The translations under genes and the position numbers were made by a program. Of a DNA stretch of 64,000 bases, positions 8,518-36,952 are shown piece by piece (within the stretch, counting starts at the first letter, position 1; each line of letters opens with the position of its first letter). The notes beneath the pieces are model-generated. The model saw only the letters and a program-made list of their open reading frames with translations, ran no database searches and was not told the origin of the DNA. Origin of the DNA: Bdellovibrionales bacterium (GTDB lineage Bacteria; Bdellovibrionota; Bdellovibrionia; Bdellovibrionales; UBA1609); contig OZ241329.1 in NCBI GenBank assembly GCA_965199825.1, positions 928,001 through 992,000 of the forward strand. Direction: 5' to 3'.

Positions 8518-9012
8518 TTACTTTAAGCCCGCATCCAGTGGAGTGGGCGCCTTTAGCCATTGATCCAAAGAGCAGGAATCCTTGATCACGTTTTTAAGAC
8601 GTTCATTTTCTTCCTCTAACACGCGCGCAAGAGTCTGAAGATCGGTCACCTCATCACGCAGTTGCAAGATCTGTTGATCCTTTTCTTGCAGAATTGTTGA
8701 GTAGGCCTTTTTTAGTTCACCAACCAGAAGTTGAACCTCCCCCCGATCAGAGGGCTGAACGGGAGAAGGCATTTGTGTTGGGGGGACAATGGGCACCTTT
8801 TGTTCGGCTAAAGCACTTGCCACCTTTTGCACAGGTGGTGGCGCCTCAGCCAATTTGCGTGACGCTTCAAAAGGAGTATCGCGAAGCAGGTATTTTCCTT
8901 CTTCGATTTTATACTCCACATCCTGGTTTTTGATCCTTCGCCTTAGTGTCGAAATACTCACTTTATATTTTAGCGAATAATCTGCTAAGGCGATCCAAGC
9001 TTTGTCGGTCAC
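8518..9012 (-). CDS. Winged-HTH (MerR/excisionase-like) DNA-binding protein with Pro-rich linker and C-terminal coiled coil
   Basis: LADYSLKYKVSISTLRRRIK...GKYLL HTH plus wing; heptads LQEKDQQILQLRDEVTDLQTLARVLEEENERLK; SD AAGGAG 7 nt before GTG. Confidence 0.8.
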   Translation of the reverse strand: MTDKAWIALADYSLKYKVSISTLRRRIKNQDVEYKIEEGKYLLRDTPFEASRKLAEAPPPVQKVASALAEQKVPIVPPTQMPSPVQPSDRGEVQLLVGELKKAYSTILQEKDQQILQLRDEVTDLQTLARVLEEENERLKNVIKDSCSLDQWLKAPTPLDAGLK

Positions 9013-9028
9013 GCGTCAACTCCTTCGA

Positions 9029-9135
9029 TGACTACCCAAATCTACCTATTCACCTTGTCAGGTGAGTAGTCTTGAATAGTCAAACTAGACTAATTCAGGA
9101 CTGATCACTTGATTTTGACTATTCATGACTACTCA
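9029..9135. promoter_or_regulatory. Cluster A of TGRRTAGTCA motif in a divergent intergenic region
   Basis: Exact copies at 9029-9038, 9073-9082, 9116-9125, 9126-9135; 1-mismatch copy at 9063-9072. Confidence 0.75.
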
Positions 9136-9156
9136 AAATGTCATAGACTATCTAGC

Positions 9157-10362
9157 GTGAAACTATCAGATAAAAAAAACCTAGCCCTTGTTCTTTCCGG
9201 TGGTGGAATCAAAGCCGCCGCTTTTCATATTGGTGTTTGTTTAGCTTTGCGCGAAAAAGGATTTCGCTTTGCTGGTGGAACTCCGGATGCGGTGATGCAA
9301 AAGTTTGAGAGTTCAAAACTCACCTTTAAACTCTACGTCGGTTCAAGCGCTGGCGCGGTGATCAGCACTTTTCTGGCTGCAGGCTACTCCATTGATGCGG
9401 TGATTGATGCATTCACTCAGGGCGCTGGTATTGGATCATTTGCCAAACAAGAAAATAGCGAAGGTTATCTCAAGCCCATAACCTATCGAGATATTTTTGC
9501 TTTAAATATTGGTGCGAGTAGCCCAACAAAAATAATTTCTAATCTGTTTAAAAAAAGACCAGCAATTGCGGGAGGTCTCGAAGTTTTTTTAAAACGCGGG
9601 ATTAAAGTAAATGGTTTATTTTCTACCAAAAATCTCGAACGCTATTTGAGAGAAACAGTTTTTCCTCAAAATAAATTTGAAGCTCTAGGCGTTGGTCTAT
9701 ATATCGTTGCCACTCAATTGAACCATTCGCGCAAAGTCGTGTTCGGCCCCTATGCCGAAAACACCAAGACCCCTCATGTGGGAACCGCAAATTATGCTCA
9801 TATCAGCGATGCGGTTGCTGCCTCAGCGGCACTGCCTCCATTTTTTTCGCCCTATGCAATAGAAAATCAAAGCGGTCGTAAGGTCCATTTTTTTGATGGC
9901 GAAATTCGCGATACGTTATCGACCCATGTGGCGGCCGAACAGGGAGCAGATCTTGTAATCTCGAGTTATTCGATCCAACCTTATCACTATCATCGCGAAA
10001 TGGGTTCGCTCCATGAGTACGGTATGCCCCTGATTTTTAATCAGGCTCTCTACCAAGCGGTCCAACAAAAAATCGAGAGTCATATTCGAAATCAAAACGA
10101 TGCCCGCAGCTTGATCGAAACTGTGGAGAAATATATGACCGACGCCAAAATACCAAAAGAACATCGTGAAAATTTACGTCAAATTATTATGAGCAAAACC
10201 CGGTTTAATCCGGCTGTGGATTATATTTATATTCATCCCAGTCCAAAAGATTACGAAATGTTTTTTTACGATCACTTTTCGCTCAACCCAAAAATTTTGG
10301 GACGGATCGTTCGCACAGGATTTAAAGCCGCAATGACCGCTTTAAAACCCTTTGCGATTTAG
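9157..10362 (+). CDS. Patatin-like phospholipase
   Basis: LVLSGGGIK, GSSAG, ASAALPPFF, DGE motifs; GTG 9157 preferred over 9109. Confidence 0.9.
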   Translation: MKLSDKKNLALVLSGGGIKAAAFHIGVCLALREKGFRFAGGTPDAVMQKFESSKLTFKLYVGSSAGAVISTFLAAGYSIDAVIDAFTQGAGIGSFAKQENSEGYLKPITYRDIFALNIGASSPTKIISNLFKKRPAIAGGLEVFLKRGIKVNGLFSTKNLERYLRETVFPQNKFEALGVGLYIVATQLNHSRKVVFGPYAENTKTPHVGTANYAHISDAVAASAALPPFFSPYAIENQSGRKVHFFDGEIRDTLSTHVAAEQGADLVISSYSIQPYHYHREMGSLHEYGMPLIFNQALYQAVQQKIESHIRNQNDARSLIETVEKYMTDAKIPKEHRENLRQIIMSKTRFNPAVDYIYIHPSPKDYEMFFYDHFSLNPKILGRIVRTGFKAAMTALKPFAI

Positions 10363-11834
10363 AACATCGATTGAACAGTGAGCTTCACAAAATCATAAAA
10401 AGGTTGTGAGCAAATTCCAAGAGCAATGGTCAACACAGCGGCCACAGTAACTGCGGCTCGAGTCATCTGTTTTTGATCGTCCACTTGAACTCCGTTTGCA
10501 TCACCCATGTACATCACCACCACAGGGCGCAAATAATAATACACACTGATTGCCGAGCCAATCACTCCCCAGATCGCAAGCCAATAAAGGCCTTGCTGAA
10601 TCAAAGCTGTAAACACAAAGAATTTACCAAAAAATCCGATGGTGGGTGGCAATCCTGCAAGGGACAACATAAAAATAGTCAAAGTAAACGCAATCCAAGG
10701 GCTTCGCTTTGCAAGACCCGAGAGATCATCAATGTCGGTAAATGAATCCTCGTGAGAATCGAGCAGCGACACCACCCCAAAGGCTCCAATGGTCATCACC
10801 GAATAGGAAAATAGATAAAAGATCAAACCGCTCGCGCCCACTTCGGCGGCTCCGCCAATACCTGCAGCAATCAATGCCATCATTGCATAGCCAGAATGTG
10901 CAATGCTCGAATACGCAAGCATGCGTTTAAAACTTGTCTGCATAATTGCGGCAACGTTGCCCACAATCACGGTAAAAACCGCCAGCCATTCAAGCAGATG
11001 AACAAGACTATCCGCCCGCTCCGACAACAAAGCGTCGGTCAAAATCAATCTTAAAAAAAAGGTAAAGCTCACCGCTTTAACCCCTGTTGCCATAAATGCG
11101 GTAATCGGTGTTGGTGCTCCTTGATAGACATCAGGGGCCCAAGCATGAAATGGAAAAATCGCCACCTTAAAGCATATTCCAATCACAGCCATTACAAAAC
11201 CAAACAAAAAGAGTCGGTTGGTTGTCATCAGATCACTGGCTACCGCGGTGATATCTGGAAGATAAGTCGATCCCACTGTTCCGTAGATAAAGGCGACACC
11301 ATAAAGAAAAATGGCCGACGCAAAACTTCCTAATACAAAATATTTGAATGCGGCTTCTTTAGATAACCGGCTCTCACCGCTCATTGCGATCAGCATGTAA
11401 AGACAAAGCGACATCAACTCGATACCAACAAAGGTGACGATCAAATCATTGGACCATGCGATGATCAACATTCCGATTGCCGAATTCATTACCAAAAAAA
11501 TAAATTCTGAAAACTGTTTGGTCATGGTGGTCAAATTTTCGCGCGCATAAAGGAGCGACCACGATGTGATAAGCAAAATCAAAACTGTGGTCCAGGTCGA
11601 AAGGCCATCAAAAATAAGCGCTCGACTAAAAGCCATTTTGTTTACACCAAAATTTGCCACCGCTAAGCCTGAGGCCGTCACACATCCGATGAGTCCATAA
11701 AGCAGACTCGCAAAAGAATTTTGCTCTTGATTCCCATGAGTGATTTTTACGGTAAGTGGAATAAGACTAGTAAAGAAAAGTGCCAAAAGTGGTGAAACAA
11801 GAAGAAGATCCAACCATTCAAAATGCTGTTCCAT
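10359..11834 (-). CDS. nuoN: NADH-quinone oxidoreductase subunit N
   Basis: EAAFKYFVLGS, FKVAIFPFHAWAPDVYQGAP, KRMLAYSSIAH. Confidence 0.97.
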   Translation of the reverse strand: MEQHFEWLDLLLVSPLLALFFTSLIPLTVKITHGNQEQNSFASLLYGLIGCVTASGLAVANFGVNKMAFSRALIFDGLSTWTTVLILLITSWSLLYARENLTTMTKQFSEFIFLVMNSAIGMLIIAWSNDLIVTFVGIELMSLCLYMLIAMSGESRLSKEAAFKYFVLGSFASAIFLYGVAFIYGTVGSTYLPDITAVASDLMTTNRLFLFGFVMAVIGICFKVAIFPFHAWAPDVYQGAPTPITAFMATGVKAVSFTFFLRLILTDALLSERADSLVHLLEWLAVFTVIVGNVAAIMQTSFKRMLAYSSIAHSGYAMMALIAAGIGGAAEVGASGLIFYLFSYSVMTIGAFGVVSLLDSHEDSFTDIDDLSGLAKRSPWIAFTLTIFMLSLAGLPPTIGFFGKFFVFTALIQQGLYWLAIWGVIGSAISVYYYLRPVVVMYMGDANGVQVDDQKQMTRAAVTVAAVLTIALGICSQPFYDFVKLTVQSMF

Positions 11835-11837
11835 ATT

Positions 11838-13364
11838 CTACCTTTTTACTTCGAGCTGATATTGATAACGAGCGTCTTGAAGATGTTCGAGACTGGCTTT
11901 GGAAAAATTCAAAAAATGCTGCGGAAAAATTCCCATCCAAAATATCAGCAAAATCAGCGGAGCTAAAACCAAACGCTCTCTTAATCCAATATCGAGACCT
12001 GGATTTTTTTCGTCGTCGTGCCCAATAACCACACCAGCCGCGGGTCCAAAGAACACTCGCTTGATCATCCACAGCATATAGGCTGCACCGAGCACCACAC
12101 CCAACACTGCAATTGAAGCAATCAACTTTTTCGCCCCAAAAGCTCCAAGTAAAATCAAAAACTCTCCGACAAATCCATTGGTCAACGGAACCGCAATGCT
12201 CGAAAGTGTCACAATCAAAAATGCGATTGTGAAAATGGGTGCGGCTTTGGCAAGGCCCCCATACTGACTGATTTCTCGAGTGTGGGTTCGCTCATAAATC
12301 ATCCCAACAAGCAAAAACAAAGCGCCTGTGCTCACACCATGATTGAGCATTTGATAAAGAGCGCCGGTTGATCCGTAAATATTGTAAGCAAAAAGTCCAA
12401 GCATCACATATCCCATATGTGAAACAGACGAGTAGGCCACAAGTTTTTTGATATCGGGCTGAACCATTGCGACCAAGGCACCATAAATAATTCCAAAAGC
12501 GGCAACACCCATCATAAATCCAGAAAAGTATTCTGCCGCCTGCGGAAAAAGAGGTAAACAAATTCGCATGAATCCATAGGTTCCCATTTTCAAAAGCACA
12601 CCCGCAAGGATCACCGACCCTGGAGTGGGTGCCTCAACGTGAGCATCGGGCAACCAAGTATGAAATGGAAATATTGGCACTTTGATCGCAAATGCCAGAG
12701 CAAACGCAAAAAATAACAGGGTTTGGGTATTTAAAAATCCGCCACCCACAAAAGGTAAATCTAATTTGTAAAAGTCTAAAAGACTTGCACTGATATGACC
12801 GCCCTCAAGCGATTTGGTCATAAACATCAATGTGATAATTCCAAGGAGCATAAACAGAGAGCCAAACATGGTGTAAATAAAAAATTTCACCGTGGCATAG
12901 ATGCGACGCTTGCCACCCCAAATCCCAATCATAAAATACATCGGGATTAAAGACGCCTCGAAGAAGGCATAAAATAAGATGGCATCAAACGATAAAAAAG
13001 TCCCAAGCATCGTGGTGCCCAAACAAAATAAGCAGGCATGAAATCCGCGCACTTGTTTATCGATCGCGGTCCAACTCCCTAAGATGGTCAGCGGAAGTAA
13101 AAATGTGGTGAGCAGCACAAGCCAAATCGAAATTCCATCGACACCCACAAAATAGGAAATCCCGAGCGAGCGCACCCAAGGGGTTTGCTCTACAAATTGA
13201 AGTTGGGCGGTGCTCTGGTCGAACTGGAATAACAAAAACAAACTTAAAATAAAAAGCGCTGTGGAACTGACAAGTGCAAAAGGTCTTACCCACTGCTCTT
13301 GCGGCATCAGCGCACAGACCAGCCCAAAAATAAGAGGTAAAAAAATGATTGAAGTTAAGATCAT
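11838..13364 (-). CDS. nuoM: NADH-quinone oxidoreductase subunit M
   Basis: AIKVPIFPFHTWLPDAHVEAPT, KKLVAYSSVSHMG. Confidence 0.97.
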   Translation of the reverse strand: MILTSIIFLPLIFGLVCALMPQEQWVRPFALVSSTALFILSLFLLFQFDQSTAQLQFVEQTPWVRSLGISYFVGVDGISIWLVLLTTFLLPLTILGSWTAIDKQVRGFHACLFCLGTTMLGTFLSFDAILFYAFFEASLIPMYFMIGIWGGKRRIYATVKFFIYTMFGSLFMLLGIITLMFMTKSLEGGHISASLLDFYKLDLPFVGGGFLNTQTLLFFAFALAFAIKVPIFPFHTWLPDAHVEAPTPGSVILAGVLLKMGTYGFMRICLPLFPQAAEYFSGFMMGVAAFGIIYGALVAMVQPDIKKLVAYSSVSHMGYVMLGLFAYNIYGSTGALYQMLNHGVSTGALFLLVGMIYERTHTREISQYGGLAKAAPIFTIAFLIVTLSSIAVPLTNGFVGEFLILLGAFGAKKLIASIAVLGVVLGAAYMLWMIKRVFFGPAAGVVIGHDDEKNPGLDIGLRERLVLAPLILLIFWMGIFPQHFLNFSKASLEHLQDARYQYQLEVKR

Positions 13365-13367
13365 GAG

Positions 13368-15299
13368 TTAGCCCACCAATACATAGGTCATTGTGACGAT
13401 CACACCGAGTGCAATATAGAGCGCATAGTATTGCATATTTCCATTTTGCACCGATCGCAACATTCGCCCCACACCTTGAACAAGATCTGCCGCAACATAG
13501 GTCGCGCGATCAACAAAATTGACATCGATATAGAGCCACAAGCCTTGGCTCAATTTCACCAGAGGTTGAATAATTCGTGCGGTGTAAAATTCATCGACAT
13601 AAAATTTGTTGTAGGTGGCCCGGTAAACAAAACCTATTTTCTGAGAAAAAGCCGCAATCTTTTGAGGATGAAAAATATAAAGGTTATAAGCAAAAAGTGC
13701 TGATACCGCCGCACCAACAACCGACACGATCATCAGAGTCCACTCCATCGAGTGCGAGGCTGTCCCCTCAGGAATTTTGGCAAGAACAGGCTCAAGCCAT
13801 TCTTCCAAAAAATTTCCGGGATGACCCGGAATCATATGACTTAAAATTTCAGGAATTCCCACCCAGCCACCAATCACCGATAAAACTCCTAAAACGATCA
13901 ATGGAATTGTCATCGTAAAGGGTGACTCGTGAGGGTGAATTTCGTGAGGCACACGCGATTTGCCCCAAAAGGTCAGGCACATTAAGCGTGTCATATAAAA
14001 TGCGGTCCCAAGGGCGCCAACAAATCCGACTACCCACAACAAAGGATGACCAAATGAAGAAGAGTACGCGCGCCACAAGATTTCATCCTTACTAAAAAAT
14101 CCGGCAAAAGGTGGCAGTCCAATAATCGCAAGCCAACCGAGCACAAAAGTAAAATGGGTGATGGGCAAGTATTTTTTAAGTCCACCCATTTTGCGAATGT
14201 CTTGCTCTTCGTGCATCCCATGAATGACCGAGCCTGAACCTAAGAACATCAAAGCTTTAAAAAATGCATGAGTCATAAGATGAAACATCGCGGGCCCAAA
14301 GGCACCAACGCCCACACCTAAAAACATATAACCGAGCTGCGAAACGGTTGAATACGCCAAAACTTTTTTAATATCGAACTGGGTAAACCCGATCAGCGCT
14401 CCCATCAGCGCCGTCAATGCACCTATCACAGCAATGATATTCATCACGTGAGGCGCTAAAATAAAAACCCCACTCATTCGAACGATCATATAAATTCCGG
14501 CAGTGACCATTGTTGCGGCGTGGATCAATGCCGACACAGGAGTGGGTCCCGCCATCGCATCGGGGAGCCAAACATAAAGAGGAATCTGCGCCGACTTTCC
14601 GGTGGCCCCAATAAAAAGCATAAGGCAGGCAAAGGTGATTGGACCACTCCAACCCAACTCCGCAACTTGAGGAACCCGAGTTAAAAGTTCGGTAAAATTC
14701 AACGTATTAAAATTGTAAAACAAAGTAAAAATGCCGAGCAAAAATGCGGCATCACCGATTCGGTTGGTAACAAAGGCTTTCATCCCAGCCGCCGCTTTGG
14801 CAGGATCGGAAAACCAAAATCCGATTAAGAGATAAGAGCAAAGCCCCACACCTTCCCATCCCACAAACATCACCAAGAGATTGTCGCCAAGAACAAGAAT
14901 CAACATGTTCATCAAAAACAGATTGAGATAAGCAAAAAACTTGGCAGGCCGTGGATCGTGAGACATGTAACCCACGCTGAATAAATGAATTAAAGATCCA
15001 ACACCGGTGATGATCAAAATCATCATCGCATTCAATGGATCAAGCAAAAAAGCAAAGTTGACATGAAAGTCGCCGGCCGAAATCCACGAAAAAAATTGGG
15101 CCGACAAAACCCGGTGCTCCTCGGGCAAACTTTTAAGCTGCAAAAATAATGTGACCGAGATGATAAAACAAATGACCGAAGCTAACGTTGCGATGCCGCC
15201 TGCAACCACCGCATTGTGCGATCGAAACCGAAATCCATTGATCAAAAATCCAACAAAAGGCACCAAAACCAGTGCTGCAAATAAAAACGGCGTGCCCAT
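13368..15299 (-). CDS. nuoL: NADH-quinone oxidoreductase subunit L
   Basis: GWEGVGLCSYLLIGF, GKSAQIPLYVWLPDAMAGPTPVSALIHAATMV. Confidence 0.97.
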   Translation of the reverse strand: MGTPFLFAALVLVPFVGFLINGFRFRSHNAVVAGGIATLASVICFIISVTLFLQLKSLPEEHRVLSAQFFSWISAGDFHVNFAFLLDPLNAMMILIITGVGSLIHLFSVGYMSHDPRPAKFFAYLNLFLMNMLILVLGDNLLVMFVGWEGVGLCSYLLIGFWFSDPAKAAAGMKAFVTNRIGDAAFLLGIFTLFYNFNTLNFTELLTRVPQVAELGWSGPITFACLMLFIGATGKSAQIPLYVWLPDAMAGPTPVSALIHAATMVTAGIYMIVRMSGVFILAPHVMNIIAVIGALTALMGALIGFTQFDIKKVLAYSTVSQLGYMFLGVGVGAFGPAMFHLMTHAFFKALMFLGSGSVIHGMHEEQDIRKMGGLKKYLPITHFTFVLGWLAIIGLPPFAGFFSKDEILWRAYSSSFGHPLLWVVGFVGALGTAFYMTRLMCLTFWGKSRVPHEIHPHESPFTMTIPLIVLGVLSVIGGWVGIPEILSHMIPGHPGNFLEEWLEPVLAKIPEGTASHSMEWTLMIVSVVGAAVSALFAYNLYIFHPQKIAAFSQKIGFVYRATYNKFYVDEFYTARIIQPLVKLSQGLWLYIDVNFVDRATYVAADLVQGVGRMLRSVQNGNMQYYALYIALGVIVTMTYVLVG

Positions 15300-15300
15300 A

Positions 15301-15627
15301 CTACCCTCTTAAATTTTCGAAGAATCGAATATTTACTTCTTTAAATTTTTTGTAAACCGTAACAGCAAGGGCAAGTCCCACACCCGCTTCGGCTGCGGCT
15401 ATGGTCATCACAAAAAACACCATAATTTGACCATTGAGATTGTGTGAATAATGGCTAAATGCCACAAATGTTAAATTGACCGCATTGAGCATGATCTCAA
15501 TACCCATCAACATCACCAAAACGTTTTTTCGCAAAAGTACCGCAATCATTCCAAAAGAAAATAAAATCGCCGATAAGATGAGGTAATGCTCAAGCCCTAC
15601 CGTCATCATATTTTCAACCGCGAGCAT
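15301..15627 (-). CDS. nuoK: NADH-quinone oxidoreductase subunit K
   Basis: IEIMLNAVN, AAAEAGVGLA; SD AAGGAGG before ATG 15627. Confidence 0.95.
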   Translation of the reverse strand: MLAVENMMTVGLEHYLILSAILFSFGMIAVLLRKNVLVMLMGIEIMLNAVNLTFVAFSHYSHNLNGQIMVFFVMTIAAAEAGVGLALAVTVYKKFKEVNIRFFENLRG

Positions 15628-16138
15628 GAGTGCCTCCTTTAATACGTGATACGGCAACCACTCCAACTGCTACGACCAAAAGTAAAACGCCCAACGCTTC
15701 AAACGAAAACACGTACTGATTGAACAACACGTTCGCAAGATCCTTGGTCGAAGTTTCAACCAAGGGTTGCTTTTCGCCAGGTTGAACTAATGATGTCGAC
15801 AGAGGGACTGCACCAATGATCAAACCCGCCAAACAAGCCGAAGCCGCAATTTTTAAAACATTGCTCGCCTCACCTCGAGTGTAAGCTTTGAGCTCGGTGC
15901 GCAAATCAAACAGCATCACCACCATCACAAATAATACCATCACCGCACCGGCATAGACGATCAACTGCACGCCGGCGATAAATGGAGCACCTAATTGAAA
16001 AAACAAAAGGGCCAATGTCACCATCGCAACTGCTAAATGGAGAGCCGAAAAAATTGGATTCACGGAACTCACCACTTTATAAGTGGCATACAAAAGAATA
16101 ATCGCCAGAATATAAAAGAGCGCTGAATTGACGTCCAT
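15614..16138 (-). CDS. nuoJ: NADH-quinone oxidoreductase subunit J
   Basis: NPIFSALHL, QLIVYAGAVMVLF, FE..GVLLL. Confidence 0.95.
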   Translation of the reverse strand: MDVNSALFYILAIILLYATYKVVSSVNPIFSALHLAVAMVTLALLFFQLGAPFIAGVQLIVYAGAVMVLFVMVVMLFDLRTELKAYTRGEASNVLKIAASACLAGLIIGAVPLSTSLVQPGEKQPLVETSTKDLANVLFNQYVFSFEALGVLLLVVAVGVVAVSRIKGGTHARG

Positions 16139-17301
16139 TACGCCCCCCAATTCGTGCGTAAAACAAAAACCAAAAGTGCGGTCGCAACAACGTTAAACAG
16201 GGCCCAAGGCAACATCGATTTCCAACCCAAATCCATCAGCTGATCATAACGAAGGCGAGGCAATGTCCAACGCACCCAAATAAAAATCCATAAAAATACC
16301 AAAATTTTTAAAAGTAAAACCACGTGAAGCATGACAGCTGTGATCACACTTGCGGCTGTTGCTCCATAGCCATGAGCCGCAATCCAGGTGTTGATCTGTT
16401 GTGGAGATATAAACGGCAAATTGTATCCACCAAAATAAAATGTCGCCATCAGTGCCGAGGCCACAAGCATATGGCCGTACTCACCGATATAAAACATGTT
16501 CATTTTAATTCCGCCGTACTCGGTATGATAACCCGCAACGAGCTCACCCTCAGCTTCAGACAAATCAAAAGGTAAGCGGTTGGTTTCGGCAAACACCGAA
16601 CTAAAAAAGAGCAAGGCTCCAAGGGGTTGATAAAAGATGCCCCAATTAGGCAAAAATCCAATACTGATGGGCTTCCCCATCCAGTGAATGGTCAAAGGTC
16701 CCACTTGATGATTGATCATCTCGCTAAAACTAAATGTGTTGTAAACGATCAAGACACCAACAAGTGCAAGACCCATCGCAAGTTCATAACTGATCATTTG
16801 GGCCGAAGCTCTGAGCGCACCTAGAAGCGAAAATTTATTGGCTGATCCCCAACCCGCCATCAAAAGTGAATATGCAGCAAGTGATGAAACGCCGAGGACA
16901 AAAACAATTCCCACCCCGATTTCGTATCCTTGAAATGCAAAATGATAAGGGCCCCATGTGCGACCCAACCATTCAAAGGGGACCACATCAATGGGTGCAG
17001 AAAGAGGAATCGCATTGAACGCTAAGGCTGCTGGAATCAGCGCGACAACAGGGGCTGCATAAAAAATAAAGCGATAACTGCTTGCGGGTACAAACTCTTC
17101 TTTTGTTAAAAACTTCACCGCGTCAGCCAAAAGCTGGGTTAAACCCAGTGGACCAATTCGGTTGGGTCCCAAACGATTTTGGATAAACGCCGAACCTCTG
17201 CGTTCCACCCACACGAGTGCTGGCACCAACTGCACCATCATCAAAAAGATGGCGACCATCTTGATAAAATTTATTCCGATTTCAAAGACGTCGGTTCCCA
17301 T
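16138..17301 (-). CDS. nuoH: NADH-quinone oxidoreductase subunit H
   Basis: QNRLGPNRIGP, AETNRLPFDLSEAEGELVAGYHTEY, PRLRYDQLM. Confidence 0.97.
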   Translation of the reverse strand: MGTDVFEIGINFIKMVAIFLMMVQLVPALVWVERRGSAFIQNRLGPNRIGPLGLTQLLADAVKFLTKEEFVPASSYRFIFYAAPVVALIPAALAFNAIPLSAPIDVVPFEWLGRTWGPYHFAFQGYEIGVGIVFVLGVSSLAAYSLLMAGWGSANKFSLLGALRASAQMISYELAMGLALVGVLIVYNTFSFSEMINHQVGPLTIHWMGKPISIGFLPNWGIFYQPLGALLFFSSVFAETNRLPFDLSEAEGELVAGYHTEYGGIKMNMFYIGEYGHMLVASALMATFYFGGYNLPFISPQQINTWIAAHGYGATAASVITAVMLHVVLLLKILVFLWIFIWVRWTLPRLRYDQLMDLGWKSMLPWALFNVVATALLVFVLRTNWGA

Positions 17302-17670
17302 TTATTCCCACTCCAAGGCTCGGGATTTAATTTCCCAAAAAAGACCAAAAACAAAAATTCCCACAAACATCGACATCACGAGCAACGCATAAGCCCCACG
17401 GCCCGCATCGATATTTTCGGAATATGTGATTGCCCAAGGGTACATAAAAATAATTTCGATATCGAACAGGATAAACAAAATCGCTGTAAGATAAAATTTA
17501 ACCGGAACTTTTGTGGTCTCTGATCCCTCACCCGCAAGTCCGGACTCGTAGGCTTCCATTTTGGATTTTGAATATTTCCCTTTGGCGCCGCATAAACTTG
17601 CGACAACGACGATTGCAATGCCAAAGACAGTGACGAATAAAGTGAGGACAAGAACCGATAGAAGACTCAA
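17302..17670 (-). CDS. nuoA: NADH-quinone oxidoreductase subunit A
   Basis: YESG, FYLTAILFILFDIE..F.YPWA, ALEWE; TTG start at 17670 after SD GGAG. Confidence 0.93.
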   Translation of the reverse strand: MSLLSVLVLTLFVTVFGIAIVVVASLCGAKGKYSKSKMEAYESGLAGEGSETTKVPVKFYLTAILFILFDIEIIFMYPWAITYSENIDAGRGAYALLVMSMFVGIFVFGLFWEIKSRALEWE

Positions 17671-17801
17671 GCGGTGGCTCCAGGGCTGATGACTTTCATG
17701 GGTGGAAACCATTACCTTATACAAATTCACAAATGTAAATCCAAGGCTCACACAAAATGTGGCTCTTTGCGTCGAGCAATGTTACAAACTTTTGATCACG
17801 C

Positions 17802-20800
17802 ATGAACAATTTTGAAGTCGAACCATTTCCATTAAGAACAATCGAAACTCTCGAAAGATTTTTGAGCCGTCCACCTTTGATAAAAGAAATGGTTGGCTCA
17901 ACCAATCTCTCTTTTTTGTCGCATCTCCTGAGTCAACGCCGCCTCAATCTCGAAAGACCAGTGGTGCTCGTGGTCGCAACCGACAAAGAGGCCGAATCAT
18001 TAGTCACCAACCTCAAATTTTTTGATCCCACCATCGCACCAATTATTTTGCCGGGATTTGATGTTTCGCCCTACTCGCAACTTTATCCCAATCGAAAAGT
18101 CGTGGCAGATCGCCTCCACTGGCTCTACCGCGCTCAGCACGCCAAGCCTCCAGATATTTTTATCGCCACCATCTCAGGACTACTGCAAAAAACTTTGCCC
18201 TTTGAGGTGCTCTCGCAAAACGAACTCGCCTTTCGGGTCTCCGAAAATCTTCCAGATGATCTTGCAAAAACACTGCTTCATTTAGGATATCAAGCCGAAC
18301 CCTTGGTCGAAGATGTCGGAACCTTTTCGATTCGCGGCTCGATCGTCGATATCTTTTCGCCAGCCCATCGGCGGGCTCTCCGGTTTGAACTTTTTGGCGA
18401 CACGATTGAGAGCATCAAAGAATTTGACCCCGCTACCCAACGCAGCATCGGTAACCTAAAGATCGCTCACATCATTCCCGCCCACGAAGTTTTGTTGCGC
18501 GATGACAGTTTGCAAAGTGCGGCTCAAGCCCTTCGTCAGAGTTGCGCTTCACGCGGAGTTCTCAACGAGGATGCAAAAACAATTTTAAGTTCGCTCACCA
18601 AAGGGCAGTACTTTTACGGAATCGAATTTTTACTTCAAAATTTTTATCCAAAGCCTGCGCAGCCCTTGGAGCATTTTAGTTTACCCATCGAAATGTGGTG
18701 GATCGATTCGATCGCAATCGTAACAGCTGCCGACAAGATTCATGCGCAACTCAAAACCGAATTTGAAGAGTCTGTGGGAGCTATTATCCGCCCCGAACCC
18801 CAAGATCTGTATGTCACGGTCGAGCAGCTTGAAGCTCCACCCGAAAGTTTTGAAACAAAGCTCAGTGGAATTCAAATCGGCGATACCGATGAAGGTATTT
18901 ATTCGGTTCAAGTCAAAGATCTCAACGAGATCACTCAGCAAACCAAAGCTCTTCATGGAAAGCCCCAGGAGCTTCAGACCTATCTTACCGAACGCATCAA
19001 AAATTTTAAATCTCAAGGTCAGCGTGTTTTTGTCGCAACAAGTACTCTGACTCAAGGCCAAAGACTTTATGCATTTTTGGAGCGCTGTGGGTTTCATCCG
19101 CAGTTGGTGAACGAAGAAAAATATGCTTGGACCCAATGGGTAAACGATCAGCAAGATGATATCGACCGCATCACATTGATCCCCCATTTTTTAAATGAAA
19201 GTTTTCGTTGGGTCGAAGAAGACATTGTCTTTTTGCGCGACGAAGATTTTTTTGGCCAAAAACGGGCGCGGCGCGAATACAAAGAAACCGGCACCCTTGA
19301 AGCCCGCACCGGCACTCTCAGTTTTGGTGATTTAAAAACCGGTGATTTTATTGTTCACAAACTTCATGGCATTGGAATCTACGAAGGCCTCAAAGTGATG
19401 CCCATTGGTGGAGTCGACGCCGAATTTATTCAGCTGTCTTACAAAGACAAAGATCGATTGTACCTTCCTGTTTATCGAATCGCTCAAATTCAAAAATACA
19501 CCGGCCCCACTTCGCCGGGTTTATTAGATAAATTGGGTGGGCTTGGTTGGGAAAAAACAAAAACCAAAGTTCGAAGTCATCTGCGTGATGTGGCCTCCGA
19601 TTTACTAAAACTTTATGCCACCCGCGCCCAAACTCAGCGCCCGCCATTTTTGGCAAACGACGACGAGTTTTATTCTTTCGAAGCCGCATTTCCCTATGAC
19701 GAAACACCCGATCAAATGCGCGCCATCGGCGACATCGTAAAAGATATGACGAGCGATAAGCCCATGGATCGTTTGATTTGTGGCGATGTGGGTTTTGGTA
19801 AAACAGAGATTGCGATGCGAGCCATCTTTAAAGCCACACAAAGTGGCAAACAAGTGGGGGTGATTGCACCCACCACCGTTTTGACCTTTCAACATTTCGA
19901 AACTTTTCAAAAACGATTTAAAAAATGGCCCCTCAATATTCGAAGCCTCAACCGCTTCGTCAGTAAAAAAGAACAGACCGAAACTTTAAAAGGATTAAAA
20001 TCAGGCCAAGTCGATATCTTGATCGGCACCCACCGTCTGTTGAGTAAAGATGTTCAGTTTAAAGATTTAGGTTTGCTCGTTATCGACGAAGAACAAAAAT
20101 TTGGGGTGCGCCACAAAGAGCGCCTACGACAAATGAAGCACAGCGTGGACACTCTTGCGATGTCTGCAACACCCATTCCCCGCACTCTCAATATGTCGCT
20201 GATGGGAATTCGCGATTTGAGTATTATCAACACCGCACCTGTTGATCGTTTGCCCACACGCACCTTTGTTTGCAAGTTTGATAAGGATACCATTCGCAAA
20301 GCGGTGATGGGCGAAGTGGCGCGCGGAGGACAGGTTTATTTTATTCATAACCGAGTCCAAAGTATTTACGGCCTTGCTGATGAATTGCGTGCCCTTTTGC
20401 CAGAAGTAAAAATGCGAGTGGCCCACGGCCAGATGGACGAAGGGACACTCGAAGAAACCATGCTCGCCTTTTTCCATCACGAGATCGATATGCTTGTGTG
20501 CACTGCCATTGTCGAAAGCGGAATGGATGTGTCGATTGCCAACACCATGTTTATCGATAACGCCCAACAATTTGGATTGAGTCAGCTGTATCAATTGCGT
20601 GGACGCGTGGGCCGATCGAAAGAGCGCGCCTATTGTTATTTGTTGATTCCCCCTCACGGCCGCATCGAAAAAGATGCGCAAGAGCGTCTCAAAGTTTTAC
20701 AAGAAAACACAGCCCTCGGCAGTGGGATTCGGATTGCGCATTATGATCTTGAACTTCGCGGAGCAGGCGATTTATTAGGCGAAACTCAGTCCGGTCATAT

Positions 20801-27527: not shown

Positions 27528-28262
27528 CTAAAACTCAAGGCGCATCCCCAGATTCCCATGAAAAGGGGAGCTGACATCTTCACCAGAAGGTTCAGAGCCA
27601 TTTAAAAAAGTGCGGGCTTCGAGATAAACAAAAGCACTCTCTAGACCCGAAGAGTTGTAAGCGGCACGCGCCGAATCGCGATCGATCCCGTCCAATTGAA
27701 CCTGTACCCCCGCAGTCATATAAGGCGCGATGCCTGTGTGACCATTTGGCGAGGCGACCGTCTCGCTATTTTCATAGTGAACGATGGTATAAACACCTGC
27801 GCTGACGTACGGAACAACATAAGGTTCAGCAAAGATCGTATCTAAATAAAATGCGCCACCGAGTCGAATTAACGTTGTGGTTAACGATGAGCCTGCATAA
27901 CTGCCTGTGCCCGAATCCTTACGAAAGCCGACGCCCACTTCAGCTCCCAAGGAACCAAAAGCCAAATTTCGTTTTACAACAAAGCTCGATTCAAACATTG
28001 GCATTTTGTTTTGATAAATATCATTATATTGAACTGCGATAGCATTGCCACCGCTGTCGCTGGTGAAGGATTCATAGTTTGACGGTTGATAGGTACTTCC
28101 ACCAAAAGCAATCGTCTTGCCCCAACGCGGACGGCGTTCGCGATAAGAATAAAGATTCAGAGCCGTTGGTAAGACCTCAACCAAATGAGGTTCGGTAAAA
28201 TCGATGATATCAACCGCGGCGAAAGCCTGAAAATAAAAAAGGCAAAACAGAATCCACATCAC
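27528..28262 (-). CDS. Putative outer-membrane beta-barrel protein
   Basis: Signal peptide, VVPYVSAG strand motif, C-terminal LGMRLEF. Confidence 0.75.
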   Translation of the reverse strand: MMWILFCLFYFQAFAAVDIIDFTEPHLVEVLPTALNLYSYRERRPRWGKTIAFGGSTYQPSNYESFTSDSGGNAIAVQYNDIYQNKMPMFESSFVVKRNLAFGSLGAEVGVGFRKDSGTGSYAGSSLTTTLIRLGGAFYLDTIFAEPYVVPYVSAGVYTIVHYENSETVASPNGHTGIAPYMTAGVQVQLDGIDRDSARAAYNSSGLESAFVYLEARTFLNGSEPSGEDVSSPFHGNLGMRLEF

Positions 28263-28327
28263 TTAAGTATAGCTACAAATCTAAAAAAATCGCGACAAAC
28301 AAAAAGCGACTGGTCTTGGGGCCGGAA

Positions 28328-28732
28328 TCAATGAAGTTTGGCAAAGTCCATTCGCGCTCGCGCTCGATCCATCTTGCGGCGGTATTTTTTAATTTGATCG
28401 GGCTCAAGATCGGGCTCGAGCAAACGTTCTTGAGAACGCTTAAAGGACTGCTCGGCACGATCGATATCGATCTGCTCTTTTGTTTCGGCGGTCTCGGCCA
28501 ATATTAAAATGCCTTGAGGATTAACTTCGCAATAACCCCAACTGATCAAGATATCTTCAAAGGCGGTTGTCCCTTTAAGGCGGTAACGCAAAGTTCCCAC
28601 CTGCAGAGTCGTCACCAATGGTGCATGCCCAGGTAAAATATCGAGCTGTCCCGCTTCACCGGGAACAATCAGCTCATCAATTTCTTCGTCGAGAACCATT
28701 CTTTTTTCTGGAGTGACCACGCTCAACAACAT
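28328..28732 (-). CDS. atpC: ATP synthase epsilon subunit
   Basis: VVTPE, GQLDILPGHAPL, IDIDRA. Confidence 0.96.
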   Translation of the reverse strand: MLLSVVTPEKRMVLDEEIDELIVPGEAGQLDILPGHAPLVTTLQVGTLRYRLKGTTAFEDILISWGYCEVNPQGILILAETAETKEQIDIDRAEQSFKRSQERLLEPDLEPDQIKKYRRKMDRARARMDFAKLH

Positions 28733-31014
<2,282 letters not shown>

Positions 31015-32541
31015 TTACGCCTTCGCACCCGGAGTGAAAATCGCGGTAAATTCTAAAACCGCATCCTTTAATGAAGCCTTAATACCATCGTCCACAGCTT
31101 TTTTCTCGGCCAGTTGACCTAAAATTGCTTTGTGTTTGGTGTGCAAAAATTCAAGAAATTCGGTTTCGAATCTTCGAACATCTTCAACCGCAATCACATC
31201 AAAATATCCATTGGTAGCTGCCCAAATAATTGCCACCTGCTCTTCCACTTGAACTGGCTGATAGTTTTTTTGTTTCAAAACTTCGACCAACCTTCGTCCA
31301 CGAGCTAATTGAGCTTGAGTGGCTTTATCAAGATCCGATGCAAACGCTGCAAAGGCTTCCATCGCGCGGTATTGGGCAAGATCAAGTTTTAAAACACCCG
31401 CGACTTGCTTCATCGCTTTAATTTGGGCTGCACCACCCACACGTGAAACAGATTTTCCAACCGAGATTGCGGGCCGCACACCTTTATAAAACAAATCGGT
31501 TTCTAAGAATATTTGTCCATCGGTAATCGAAATTACGTTTGTTGGAATGTAGGCAGAAATATCACCCGCCTGAGTTTCGATAATTGGCAGAGCGGTCAAC
31601 GATCCCGAACCTTTTTCTTTACTCATCTTTGCGGCTCGCTCTAACAATCGTGAGTGAAGATAAAAAACATCCCCAGGATAAGCTTCACGTCCAGGAGGCC
31701 GTCTTAAAAGTAATGATAACTGTCGATAGGCCTGAGCTTGTTTAGTTAGATCATCATAAATAATAAGAGCATGGCGGCCGGTATCGCGAAAATATTCTGC
31801 CATAGTCACGCCTGCATAAGGAGCCAAAAACTGTAAGGGCGCTGGATCAGAGGCAGTAGCCGCAATCACCGTCGTGTATTCCATTGCGCCCTCTTGACGC
31901 AATTTTTCGACCACTTGAGCAACGGTCGATCGCTTTTGGCCAATGGCCACATAAAAACAATAAACCCCTTTGCCTTTTTGATTAATGATCGTGTCGATTG
32001 CAATTGTGGTTTTACCTGTTTGACGATCACCAATGATCAACTCACGCTGACCTCGGCCAATTGGAATCATCGCATCGATCGCTTTAATTCCTGTCTGCAA
32101 TGGCTCATGCACAGATTGACGAGCAATAATTCCAGGAGCTTTTGATTCAACAATACGCATTTCTTTACAATCAATTGGACCGCGCCCATCAATGGGTTGT
32201 CCTAGTACATCCACCACTCGACCTAAAAGAGCCTCGCCCACCGGGACTTGAACAATTTGGCCGGTGCGTTTGACCGTATCGCCCTCTTTGATATCGCGAT
32301 CTTCACCAAAAATAACAATGCCCACCGAATCTTTTTCGAGATTCAAAACCATCCCAGTGACATTCCCTGGAAAGGTCACAAGCTCACCGGCCATTGCGTT
32401 GTCTAAGCCGTAGCATCGAGCAACACCATCGCCGACAGAGAGCACAGATCCTGTCTCGCTCACCTCAACCGTTTTTTTGTAGGATTTGATTTGTTCTTGT
32501 AAGATCCGGCTGATTTCATCGGCGCGAATTGTGACTTCCAT
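31015..32541 (-). CDS. atpA: ATP synthase alpha subunit
   Basis: [29 protein letters not shown]. Confidence 0.99.
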
Positions 32542-33080
32542 TAAATACTCCTCTTCAGGTTCTCTTGCAGTCTTTGTAGATGGGACTGCAGAGTATCGTC
32601 GAATGTAAAACTACCCACATGCGCAATAAGTCCACCGATCACTTCGGGATTTTCGCGGTACGTGAGGATTGCTTGTTTTTGGGTAACTTCAGAAACTTTA
32701 TTTTCAATCTTTTTGCGCTCTTCGGGGGCAAGAGCCACTGCCGAGTGCACTTCGCCTCGCACTATTCCGCCGGCCTCATCTGCACGAGCTTCATAAGCTT
32801 CGACGAGACTTGGAAAAATTCCGATCCGACCTTTACGCGCCAATAATAAAAGTAGATTTTTTATTTGTTCTGACAGGTCTAACTTTTCGATGGTCTTACC
32901 TATGACCGCTTCGCGCTCGTCAGCACTTACCAAGGGAGAAGTCATAAAACTCATCACTTCTTGTTGTGAGGTCAATGCCTCATTCACAACTCGAAGTTCT
33001 TGCGACAACCGCTCCTGTGGCCCTTTGTTAAGATCATAAAGTGCTTTTGCATATCGAACTGCAATTTCGGCGGGCCTCAT
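32541..33080 (-). CDS. atpH: ATP synthase delta subunit
   Basis: [14 protein letters not shown]...VGS..FD; operon position. Confidence 0.95.
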
Positions 33081-33628
33081 GGAACCACCTGAATCTTGCC
33101 TGAAAATTCGTTTTGCAAACGCTGCCGATCTTTTTCTTCAACTTCATTTTTTAATTTTGATGTGGCCGCTTCAACAGCAACATTTAGAAGTTCCCGGCGC
33201 AGTTGTTTTTTTGCTTTGTCGATTTCAAGCTCTGCCGCAAACTGAGCTTCTTGTGTTAACCGCTCGGAAAATAATTTAGCTTCACTCATCAATTTTTGTT
33301 TCAATTGCTCGGCCTCTTGCTGGGCATCGTTCTGCGATTGCTGTGCGCCGTTTTCTAATCTTTTAAGGCGCGCTTCAATTTCATTTTTTTGGGCTTGGGC
33401 CTCAGAACGCGCAGCTTCGGCTCGGCCAACGAGTTCGCGATAAGATGATGCTCGCTGTTTAAAGTAAGCACGAGTTTTATCTTTCAAAAAATAAACCAAA
33501 AGTCCAATCAGAACCAAAAAGTTTCCGGCTTGAACAAGGATCAATTTATATGGAATCCCATGCTCAACAGCTGCATGAGCGGATTCGTTTGCAAAACTGG
33601 ATTGAATCAAGAGATTCAAAAAAATCAT
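33077..33628 (-). CDS. atpF: ATP synthase F0 subunit b
   Basis: QAGNFLVLIGLLVYF TM plus a long coiled coil; operon position. Confidence 0.9.
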   Translation of the reverse strand: MIFLNLLIQSSFANESAHAAVEHGIPYKLILVQAGNFLVLIGLLVYFLKDKTRAYFKQRASSYRELVGRAEAARSEAQAQKNEIEARLKRLENGAQQSQNDAQQEAEQLKQKLMSEAKLFSERLTQEAQFAAELEIDKAKKQLRRELLNVAVEAATSKLKNEVEEKDRQRLQNEFSGKIQVVP

Positions 33629-34071
33629 ACGGCCAAATCCTTACCCAACAATTTTGCAACAATCGATTGGCTAATCACTTGGACTTCATTTTTAATCTGC
33701 GGTTGCACGCGTGCCATTTCGACTTTGATTTTTTCGAGAGTGTTGTCATTTTGAATTTTGGCTTTTGAGCGCGCATCATCAACGATTGTTTGATATTCCA
33801 CTTGTGCCGACTTTCGAGCAGTTTCAAAAAATTCTTTTGAAATTAGATTTTGGGCACGGGCTTTTTCTTGGTAACGTTGCTCAAGATTTTTTGCATCGCT
33901 CAACAGTTTTTCAGCAACATCGGTATTGCCCACGGTACGACGGGTTCGCTCGACAAACGCATTGTAATAGGGCGTAAATACCATTCGCGAAAGTACAAAA
34001 TAAACACAAATGAAAATGATAAATTGCAGGCCAACCGTTTCATTAACGCCCAGAGAAGCCAGTAATTCCAT
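33625..34071 (-). CDS. ATP synthase F0 subunit b'
   Basis: QFIIFI..YFVL..VFTPY.....ER, coiled coil; precedes atpF. Confidence 0.88.
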   Translation of the reverse strand: MELLASLGVNETVGLQFIIFICVYFVLSRMVFTPYYNAFVERTRRTVGNTDVAEKLLSDAKNLEQRYQEKARAQNLISKEFFETARKSAQVEYQTIVDDARSKAKIQNDNTLEKIKVEMARVQPQIKNEVQVISQSIVAKLLGKDLAV

Positions 34072-34140
34072 GAGATCAAATCCTTAAATGTGAGCCGGTG
34101 TTGTGAGCAGTTACCTTGAGATGTCAGAAGTGGTCAAGCT

Positions 34141-34515
34141 TTAGCTCTTTGGCATATAGGAGGCACCTTCGAACACAACACCTTCGTCGATGCGCAAACT
34201 TGGTGTTGTCACGGTCCCTTGAAAAACCGCTGGTGGATGCATCAGCACTCGACGGCGAGCAAAAATATTCCCCTTAACAGTCCCGCTGATAATCACAGTG
34301 TCGGCTTCAATTTGGGCTTCGACAAATGCACCCGGATTTACCACCAATGTGTCGTTGGTAAAAATCTCGCCCCGAAATTGGCCGCCGATGCGGACTGTGC
34401 CTTCAAAAGTCAGCCTCCCATCAAAGGCTGCGCCCATATCTAATAGTGCGGTAACCTGATTCTGCAAGCCGTTGCCCGCACTCTCGATTAAATTTAAACT
34501 TTCGGCTTCTGCCAT
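34141..34515 (-). CDS. Bactofilin (polymer-forming cytoskeletal protein)
   Basis: GAAFDGRLTFEGTVRIGG...VIISGTVKGNI...LRIDEGVVFEG beta-helix repeats. Confidence 0.93.
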   Translation of the reverse strand: MAEAESLNLIESAGNGLQNQVTALLDMGAAFDGRLTFEGTVRIGGQFRGEIFTNDTLVVNPGAFVEAQIEADTVIISGTVKGNIFARRRVLMHPPAVFQGTVTTPSLRIDEGVVFEGASYMPKS

Positions 34516-35432
34516 GATCGCCTCATTCGGTCGGTGATTTCGTTCAACTCGTCATCAGAATAAAAATGCAAAGAGACTCGTCCCTTACCCAAAATGTAAT
34601 CAATGGTGACCTTAGATCCTACAATTTTCTGAAGCTCTTCATTTAAAACTTTAATCGACTGGGCCACAGGTTTGGATTCTTGCTGAGTATCTGGACTTAA
34701 ATGTTTCGCAATTAATTTTTCGGCTGCACGAACCGAAAGTTTTTCGCGAATAATCTTTTGGGCCAGATTTTTTTGAGCCACCACATCGGTCACTCCTAAG
34801 AGGACCTTGGCTTGACCCAGCGAAAGTTCACCCGTGCCGACCCACTCGCGCACATCTGGGCTCAATTGCAAAATACGAAGTGTGTTTGCAATGGTCACTC
34901 GCTCTTTGCCCACTTTTTCGCTCAATTGCTGTTGGGTTAGACTGTATGTTTCCAACAGATGAGAATAAGCGAGAGCTTCCTCCAGCGGATTTAAATCTTG
35001 GCGTTGAATATTTTCGATTAGCGCCAGCTCAAGTGATTTTTGATCGCCAATATTTTGCAAAATAACCGGAACTTCATGAAGACCCGCGATCTGTGCGGCT
35101 CGCCAGCGTCGTTCGCCCGCAATAATTTCGAAATTTTGGGTGCCTTTGCGTCGCGCAACGATGGGCTGAAGTATTCCTTGAGCCTTGATTGATGCGGCCA
35201 ATTCGTTCAGTGTATCGCTCTTAAAAACTTTGCGTGGCTGATTGGGTTGAGGTGACAATTTATCAATCGAGATTTGCCAAATCCGTGCAGTTTCGGGAAT
35301 TTGTGGTGTCGTAATAGAAGGCTTTGTTACAACTGTTGTAGCGTTTGTGCTGGTTGCCGATTGACCTAAGAGGCTACCTAGCCCACGACCGAGCGAATGC
35401 TTGCGAATATGCTTTTCGGGAGCCTCAGACAT
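34494..35432 (-). CDS. parB: Chromosome partitioning protein ParB
   Basis: LGRGLGSLL ParA-binding peptide, QPRK.F, GERRWRA, ENIQRQDLNPLEEA; start at MSEAP. Confidence 0.97.
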   Translation of the reverse strand: MSEAPEKHIRKHSLGRGLGSLLGQSATSTNATTVVTKPSITTPQIPETARIWQISIDKLSPQPNQPRKVFKSDTLNELAASIKAQGILQPIVARRKGTQNFEIIAGERRWRAAQIAGLHEVPVILQNIGDQKSLELALIENIQRQDLNPLEEALAYSHLLETYSLTQQQLSEKVGKERVTIANTLRILQLSPDVREWVGTGELSLGQAKVLLGVTDVVAQKNLAQKIIREKLSVRAAEKLIAKHLSPDTQQESKPVAQSIKVLNEELQKIVGSKVTIDYILGKGRVSLHFYSDDELNEITDRMRRSWQKPKV

Positions 35433-36333
35433 GGATATCCCCATTCTCAGGCTGAGCTGGAGTTGGATAGTCACCTGAGTAGTCACTTGGATAGTCATGA
35501 CTATCCACTTGAGTGGTCACGGGAGCTTCATCATGAGTAGTCACACCAAAAAGTTTTTCGTCCAATTCAGATGCGAGCTCACGGTATTTTCGAGCTCCCA
35601 CCGATTTGGGATCATATTGAATAATCGAGAGGCCGTGACTAGGCGCCTCGCTTAAGCGAACATTCCGTGGAACAATCGCTTTAAAAACTTTGTCGCCAAA
35701 ATGCTCTTGAATTTCGGAAACCACCTGATGACTCAAATTATTTCGAGTATCAAACATGGTTAAAACGATGCCTTCAATTAAAAGATCAGGATTTAAACCT
35801 TTGCGGATGAGACCCGCTGTATTTAAAAGCTGACTCAGTCCTTCTAACGCAAAGTACTCGCACTGTAGGGGAACCAAAAAACTATTTGCAGCAGTTAGCG
35901 AGTTCACTGTGAGCAATCCCAACGATGGAGGACAATCGATGAGAACAAAATCATATTGATCGGCAATGGAGTGTAATGCGCCTTTCAGGCGATATTCTCT
36001 TTCGGGCATGTCGACCAAATCAATCTCTGCTCCTACTAAATCTGGATTTGCCGCAATCACGTCAAGATGCTCAACCGCAGAAGGTGAAATCACTTCTTGA
36101 ATGGGTGTTTCGCCAATTAGAACGGGATAAATGTTTTTGTCTTGATGCTCATGACGCTTCATCCCAAGGCCACTTGACGCGTTGCCCTGAGGATCCATAT
36201 CCACAAGCAAAACTCGTCGTCCTCGCTCCGCCAATGCCGATGCCAGATTCACAGTTGTGGTTGTTTTGCCAACCCCACCCTTTTGGTTTGCGATACAAAT
36301 AATTCGGCCCAAGTTGTTGCTCCTGTTGTTCAT
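35425..36333 (-). CDS. parA: Chromosome partitioning ATPase ParA/Soj with C-terminal low-complexity tail
   Basis: NQKGGVGKTT, DMDPQGNAS, DCPPSLG, PRNVRLSEAPSHG. Confidence 0.98.
   Translation of the reverse strand: MNNRSNNLGRIICIANQKGGVGKTTTTVNLASALAERGRRVLLVDMDPQGNASSGLGMKRHEHQDKNIYPVLIGETPIQEVISPSAVEHLDVIAANPDLVGAEIDLVDMPEREYRLKGALHSIADQYDFVLIDCPPSLGLLTVNSLTAANSFLVPLQCEYFALEGLSQLLNTAGLIRKGLNPDLLIEGIVLTMFDTRNNLSHQVVSEIQEHFGDKVFKAIVPRNVRLSEAPSHGLSIIQYDPKSVGARKYRELASELDEKLFGVTTHDEAPVTTQVDSHDYPSDYSGDYPTPAQPENGDIHV
35464..35543. promoter_or_regulatory. Cluster B of TGRRTAGTCA motif, inside the parA 3' end and upstream of parB
   Basis: Exact copies start at 35464, 35476, 35488, 35498 (inverted) and 35534; 1-mismatch copy at 35510. 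Confidence 0.75.
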
Positions 36334-36354
36334 TTTTATTCCGAAGCTGCCGAT

Positions 36355-36370
36355 TGTTCCACGTGGAACA
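36355..36370. promoter_or_regulatory. parS: parS centromere site
   Basis: Perfect palindrome TGTTCCACGTGGAACA just upstream of parA. Confidence 0.95.
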
Positions 36371-36386
36371 TTGGAAATCTAGACAA

Positions 36387-36890
36387 ATGAAAATCCTTTT
36401 TGCACTGCTCGCCGCTTTTTTAATGAGCGCATGTCAGCGTCGCGAAGCTCAGCCCGAAATGCTCGACAAGATCTATTCCGATCTCAAGGTCACTTTAGCT
36501 GAGGAAGAAAAAGCGGCAGAAGAGGAAAAGAAAAAAATAGAAGAGTCAGAAAAGAAATTTGAACAGTACGAGCCCAACACACTCGAACTCAAACAAGTTC
36601 GAAAAGCAAATTTGGCTGCAAAAGAGTCTTATCAAAAGCATGCTCAGATGGTGGAATTCTATAAAATTAGGGTTGAGAAGCGGCGCCTCGAAGACCGCGT
36701 GACCTATGAACTTGCTTTTCAAAAGAAAGAAGCCTGGCCCGATCCTTCAGAGTACGAAGGTTATCTCCAAAACAAAAAATTGAGGAATGCCGGATTAGAT
36801 TGGAAGGCTCGCGTGCCCTCCATCACAGATAGATACTCAAAAAATCCAGCTCCAGTTAAAAAAACCGAGAAAAAGGCTGAAGCTGAATAG
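36387..36890 (+). CDS. Hypothetical coiled-coil lipoprotein
   Basis: MKILFALLAAFLMSAC lipobox, E/K-rich helices. Confidence 0.8.
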   Translation: MKILFALLAAFLMSACQRREAQPEMLDKIYSDLKVTLAEEEKAAEEEKKKIEESEKKFEQYEPNTLELKQVRKANLAAKESYQKHAQMVEFYKIRVEKRRLEDRVTYELAFQKKEAWPDPSEYEGYLQNKKLRNAGLDWKARVPSITDRYSKNPAPVKKTEKKAEAE

Positions 36891-36952
36891 TCATGACTAT
36901 TCACTGACTACTCAAATTGTTCCACGTGGAACAATTTGGCGTTGAGTAGTCA
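36884..36952. promoter_or_regulatory. Cluster C of TGRRTAGTCA motif, bracketing parS
   Basis: Exact copies at 36884-36893, 36894-36903, 36905-36914, 36943-36952. Confidence 0.75.

Follow-up and report, generated by a model that had tools for sequence, protein, structure and literature searches.

The closest described counterparts of the system presented here come from Firmicutes and combine a winged helix with a coiled coil: RacA of Bacillus subtilis, RocS of Streptococcus pneumoniae, RicO of Staphylococcus aureus, and Par of the S. aureus plasmid pSK1. RacA carries an N-terminal MerR-type winged helix followed, after a linker, by a coiled coil, and according to the RicO preprint (bioRxiv 10.64898/2026.03.06.710092), which surveyed Firmicutes only, it binds 25 ram sites over about 600 kb. 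RicO and RocS act on the origin region during vegetative growth (PMC11500499, bioRxiv 10.64898/2026.03.06.710092), in hosts that either lack ParA or carry an incomplete Par system, and both end in a C-terminal amphipathic membrane helix; ricS, the target of RicO, is a non-palindromic 18-mer present at nine sites over 700 kb. Par is the sole partition protein of its plasmid. Here we describe gene X, the ortholog of Bd3881 of Bdellovibrio bacteriovorus, within a 64,000-nucleotide stretch of a Bdellovibrionales bacterium (contig OZ241329.1 of assembly GCA_965199825.1, positions 928,001 to 992,000; hereafter the window), together with a short DNA motif that is clustered at the gene and around the parABS locus. 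The gene X protein probably resembles all four proteins in layout and job, yet fails defining features of each. As in pSK1 Par, an array of predicted sites lies upstream of its own gene; unlike Par, gene X is chromosomal, phylum-wide and located beside a complete ParABS system, and its sites are near-palindromic and recur at parAB. In contrast to the scattered ram sites, the three site clusters of the window are tight and all lie within 28 kb.

The link between gene and motif is seen at the gene X locus, whose features are the following:
8518..9012, minus strand: gene X, 164 amino acids, ortholog of Bd3881 (from predicted structure, synteny and gene lengths)
9029..9135: cluster 1, five sites (9029, 9063, 9073, 9116, 9126), in the gap that separates gene X from the divergent patatin gene
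9157..10362, plus strand: gene for a patatin-like phospholipase, a conserved divergent neighbor (start 9157 inferred; the open reading frame tool gives 9109)

Among the upstream regions of 57 orthologs, with the genome under study left out, the top four de novo 8-mers include words of the motif, and the exact 10-mer TGRRTAGTCA occurs within 300 bp upstream in 30 of the 57, versus none in control stretches further upstream. Refinement on these regions yields the near-palindrome TGRNTANYCA, which corrects the motif first put forward by an examination of the letters of the window (the sequence-only reading); TGAATAGTCA is the site that the gene X protein is predicted to prefer. Matrix matches are found at 49 of 50 further ortholog loci (those of 80 named loci that have a full upstream flank, a few of which may duplicate training genomes), at a density of 10.3 per kb versus a background of 0.11, an enrichment of about 90-fold. 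Two positions are fixed with respect to the gene: one 21-30 bp before the start codon (26 matches), where the first site of cluster 1 lies 26 bp ahead of the start in a position kept in relatives, and one at about +29 inside the gene (35 matches). At this internal site, which covers codons 10-13, Ser is encoded by TCA in 40 of 51 cases, versus 141 of 773 elsewhere in the genes (kin not being independent), and codon choice thus shows the site to be under apparent constraint at the DNA level. Since the own-gene sites straddle the start codon, autorepression is suggested, and it is likely that gene X represses its own gene; sites just before and just after the start codon would cap the level of the protein. 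These data support the association of motif and gene, with its implied self-regulation, that had been proposed from the window alone, and the gene X protein very probably binds the motif.

Structure prediction bears out the suggested layout of winged helix, Pro-rich linker and coiled coil. A MerR/Xis-type winged helix is predicted at about residues 6-44, the Pro-rich linker has low prediction confidence, and a long helix or coiled coil spans residues 89-154, with a predicted local distance difference test score above 90 and hydrophobic residues at 13 of 19 a/d positions; a short acidic-hydrophobic tail closes the chain. The fold class is common to RacA, Par and BldC, and the best fold matches are BldC, Xis and MerR regulators. 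BldC and Xis are not known to have a long coiled coil. The likeness to RacA is one of predicted layout, and no match to RacA was obtained in NCBIfam or PDB sequence searches, in which short divergent domains can be missed. DUF536, the family of RocS and pSK1 Par, is not among the 25 of 56 families listed for gene X, and a membrane helix of the Par, RocS or RicO type was not seen in a crude check in which none of 71 tails contained FF and 45 of 71 were net acidic; many orthologs end right after the coiled coil. Weak Pfam matches to DUF3972 (PF13118) occur in 17 of 71 family members (best E 3.6e-5), and DUF3972 of Campylobacterota is also the nearest named cluster by language-model features (0.93); no function is described for it in the literature found under that name. 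These Campylobacterota proteins may form a sister family of gene X with sites of their own.

Gene X is no orphan, as had first been supposed, since it is present in 227 of 251 Bdellovibrionota genomes and kept in all 63 genomes of the order in the phylum sample; it is chromosomal and mostly single-copy, and its putative recognition helix, like the motif, hardly varies from one end of the phylum to the other. In B. bacteriovorus YOA24 (L217), a 161-residue ortholog lies between a 399-residue patatin and a 459-residue gene, with Lon five genes on. In the published tables (PMC3627812 / PMC12546842), Bd3882 is a patatin of 1,200 bp, Bd3881 a hypothetical gene of 486 bp, Bd3880 an HD-GYP homolog, and Bd3876 Lon. 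As synteny and gene lengths agree, gene X is identified with Bd3881, which appears in the literature found solely as a table row, with no hit in the supplements of PMC11025332 and PMC6561027. Gene X is present twice in one genome (G003; L012, L131): the match to one copy contains stops, the other copy is divided between two frames, and both carry upstream sites.

Within the window, the 13 exact TGRRTAGTCA copies reported by the sequence-only reading are all present, whereas dinucleotide shuffles contain an average of 0.28 and at most 2; one-mismatch copies at 9063 and 35510 both fall within clusters. The genome (2.84 Mb, with a chromosome contig of 2.78 Mb) contains 18 exact copies, 13 of them in the three clusters. 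When the chromosome contig is scanned with a matrix trained solely on gene X regions of other genomes, which was also used for the par loci below, exactly three clusters of at least three matches are found, the same three as in the window. In 40 trials with column-permuted matrices, 22 gave no such cluster and others up to 6, so that the cluster count alone is not unique and the positions carry the weight. Site spacings display a weak tendency toward 11-bp phasing (p about 0.005, without correction for the eight periods tried). Outside the clusters, none of the 29 strong matches in this genome lies between genes, and matches at 12 bits are intergenic in 3.7% of cases versus 8.8% for permuted matrices; off-cluster matches therefore point to no wider regulon in this genome, in a check that could miss single degenerate sites. 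BldC has a large regulon, and a genome-wide promoter regulon of this type was not seen for gene X. Many of the off-cluster matrix matches, and two of the five stray exact copies, are explained by at least 15 paralogous genes of about 270-290 amino acids with a common N-terminus that lie outside the window (contig C1, for example at 475560, 512861, 534514, 827474, 904266 and 1269526).

The other two clusters lie in the parABS locus of the window, arranged as follows:
34494..35432, minus strand: parB (start 35432 inferred, overlapping the parA stop; the open reading frame tool gives 35498)
35425..36333, minus strand: parA; cluster 2 falls in the part that encodes its variable C-terminal tail
35464..35543: cluster 2, six sites (35464, 35476, 35488, 35498, 35510, 35534), with spacings of 12, 12, 10, 12 and 24 bp
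36354..36890, plus strand: antisense gene for a putative lipoprotein, lying between the parS sites (its start is probably close to 36387)
36355..36370: parS1, a perfect palindrome, one of two in the genome
36884..36952: cluster 3, four sites (36884, 36894, 36905, 36943), three before parS2 and one after it
36918..36933: parS2, a perfect palindrome, one of two in the genome
45170..45258: likely oriC, at the GC-skew minimum, with three DnaA boxes in the interval from dnaA to dnaN

Both palindromes are taken to be parS on the strength of its consensus. Cluster 2 is near the parA/parB junction, as first described, but falls within the parA coding sequence, where it encodes the variable low-complexity tail at the 3' end of the gene, 30-110 bp ahead of the inferred parB start. 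Cluster 3 sits at the ends of the convergent lipoprotein gene and rsmG, which is no promoter position. Together, clusters 2 and 3 bracket parS1, and cluster 3 flanks parS2. The putative lipoprotein gene, which has no Pfam match and sits between rsmG and parA with a parS site at each end, is conserved in most of the order's genomes.

Recurrence of the motif at parABS extends well beyond the window. At 56 par loci of the order, the region within 120 bp of parS has 48 matches versus 4.7 with permuted matrices, the parA/parB junction 30 versus 2.6, and the rest of the upstream region 81 versus 21, while the parB core holds 13 versus 11.5. Paired par sites are found in 28 of these 56 genomes, spread over 8 of 13 families, where permuted matrices average 1.0. 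In a distant set of 30 genomes, picked from other orders and classes for family spread and assembly quality, they are found in 10 (8 of 17 families; 0.8 with permuted matrices), and the 250 bp before parA hold 16 matches versus 1.4 expected. The recurrent clusters lie within about 1.5 kb of parA, the pattern of the window (upstream plus junction sites) recurs in four genomes of four other families, and site numbers at gene X and par are correlated (rho 0.57, n=47, kin not independent). Cluster positions are not the same from genome to genome, and some fall in coding DNA or where convergent genes end. Furthermore, paired par sites occur in 38 of 83 genomes with gene X versus 1 of 18 in which it was not found (1 of 15 outside the order, 0 of 3 inside); 10 of these 18 belong to one family, and for five of them a second search with an N-terminal profile was likewise empty. 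In family f22 (L312-L321), where gene X was not found, ParA lies in longer open frames (338-418 amino acids) than in relatives. It could be argued that another protein binds the motif and that gene X and parAB, which share growth-phase expression, are merely its co-targets; the scarcity of the motif at the par loci of genomes in which gene X was not found, the missing wider regulon, and a putative recognition helix as nearly invariant as the motif itself make this very improbable.

Expression data from B. bacteriovorus provide a further connection. The Bd3881 transcript is 143-fold higher in growth phase (6,291 versus 42 reads per kilobase per million), next to growth-specific increases of 160-fold for parB and 305-fold for parA, and stands above both of these transcripts (PMC3627812, where the meaning of the columns was deduced from the sheet name and the behavior of parAB). 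The protein reaches its highest level at 3-4 h and belongs to a 20-protein cluster that also includes ParA and ParB (PMC12546842), and in the data of that study its profile follows that of ParB with r=0.99 over 11 time points. The tie to chromosome segregation proposed earlier is thereby supported. As reported in PMC7186360, parA, parB and a bactofilin gene are co-transcribed, and the DivIVA library hits given there do not include Bd3881. A DivIVA gene, whose product is the polar partner of RacA, is present.

The same organism offers a phenomenon that gene X might have been thought to explain. In attack phase, a Bdellovibrio-specific factor blocks ParB at parS through flanking DNA of 242 bp and 330 bp, an effect that operates in B. 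bacteriovorus only (PMC10547168). Gene X is lineage-specific, its motif flanks parS in the window, and gating of ParB loading had accordingly been suggested. The equivalent fragments of YOA24 (L227) and G066 (L231), delimited with the primers of that study, contain one weak site (8 bits) at parS1 and none at parS2, and Bd3881 transcript and protein are low in attack phase and high when ParB is loaded, so that the protein is present with loaded ParB rather than excluded. There is consequently very little chance that gene X is the blocker, which is to be sought elsewhere.

The reading that we prefer, and hold to be evenly balanced between right and wrong, is that the gene X product is a growth-phase accessory organizer of the origin region that acts beside ParABS. 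It is favored because co-expression with parAB persists in Bdellovibrio, a genus mostly without par clusters, which fits a partner better than a regulator; because cluster positions wander through coding DNA and gene ends, unlike fixed operators; because the transcript is abundant; and because known proteins of the same layout organize or anchor DNA (PMC11500499, bioRxiv 10.64898/2026.03.06.710092). Several results weigh against it. The genus Bdellovibrio keeps gene X and its own-gene sites but has paired par sites in only 2 of 30 genomes, which goes part of the way toward the outcome (gene without clusters) that the sequence-only reading had named as refuting it. Gene X and parA are about 10-85 kb apart in most genomes with both on one contig, but 166-567 kb apart in seven distant genomes. 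parS itself is only weakly preferred (p=0.04). In addition, a RacA-like field of sites round the origin, as envisaged by the sequence-only reading, was seen neither in this genome, where matches rise only in the bins with the three clusters, nor in three relatives, for which 100-200 kb were scanned. Of the 30 Bdellovibrio genomes (L327-L356), about two thirds keep one modest site inside parA, at position +214.

Some of this evidence could also describe the main rival, a BldC-like transcription factor whose small regulon would consist of its own gene, together with the divergent patatin gene, and of parAB, and which would tune the ratio of ParA to ParB from operators ahead of parA and ahead of parB, perhaps by looping through its coiled coil. 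Such a role would be consistent with the best fold matches, with the own-gene sites straddling the start codon, with the placement of par sites, which 11 of 30 distant genomes have in the 250 bp ahead of parA and which gather at the parA/parB junction in 14 of the 56 order genomes and 4 of the 30 distant ones, and with the critical ParA:ParB balance of B. bacteriovorus (PMC10547168). Yet parAB remains 160- to 305-fold growth-specific although Bdellovibrio mostly lacks par clusters, cluster 3 lies at convergent gene ends, site positions shift between genomes, the gene is retained in every one of the 63 sampled genomes of the order, and its transcript is abundant for a dedicated regulator; this explanation is possible but, in our view, unlikely.

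A different role is suggested by the arrangement of clusters 2 and 3 around parS1 and parS2, in which gene X would serve as a roadblock or clamp lock that limits ParB sliding in growth and shapes the partition complex. The idea is modeled on the analogy of KorA and KorB. Enrichment of sites near parS and the co-expression of gene X with ParB agree with it, and the RicO preprint (bioRxiv 10.64898/2026.03.06.710092) itself speculates on limiting ParB sliding; with the weak preference for parS, the lack of clusters in most Bdellovibrio genomes, and bracketing from both sides in only 5 of 57 genomes, it is nevertheless improbable.

Under the preferred role as an origin-region organizer, coiled-coil oligomers of gene X would bind sites about 11 bp apart cooperatively, and would bridge or compact origin-proximal DNA, or tether it via a protein partner, while several chromosome copies segregate in the filament. 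The own-gene array, which is usually origin-proximal, could itself be a centromere-like site, as in pSK1 Par, which would account for the gene being kept where par clusters are missing. Of the sequence-only reading as a whole, the layout, the self-regulatory link, the recurrence at parABS and the tie to chromosome segregation are supported, and the orphan status, the RacA-like field and, for B. bacteriovorus in attack phase, the gating of ParB loading are not. Its boldest extension, a second, phylum-wide centromere system in which a RacA/Par-like Bd3881 protein with its own palindromic site uses arrays at its own gene and beside parS to organize or tether the origins of the filament, is tentative and falls somewhat short of an even chance. 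Bdellovibrio segregates many chromosome copies along the filament, and the authors of PMC10547168 report that no polar hub is known and that it is not explained how the centromeres come to be evenly spaced. If correct, this would be the first such protein described outside Firmicutes and working beside a complete ParABS, would extend the RacA/RocS/RicO/Par-like origin binders to a Gram-negative phylum, and would be a candidate explanation for the beads-on-a-string arrangement of Bdellovibrio centromeres; a weaker reading would still leave a phylum-wide pair of protein and site linked to parAB. Bd3881 is a named, unstudied gene in a tractable model organism, with a predicted site and co-expression with ParA and ParB, which makes the question of its part in segregation directly testable.

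Two minor observations concern neighboring regions. In one relative (G026, L242:806-1033), a further cluster of four sites lies across the origin, some 40 kb away from dnaA, at the junction of what we take, from the translations, to be a transaldolase-like gene and a lipoprotein gene. In the window, positions 10359-17751 hold an operon with the seven membrane subunits of complex I alone.

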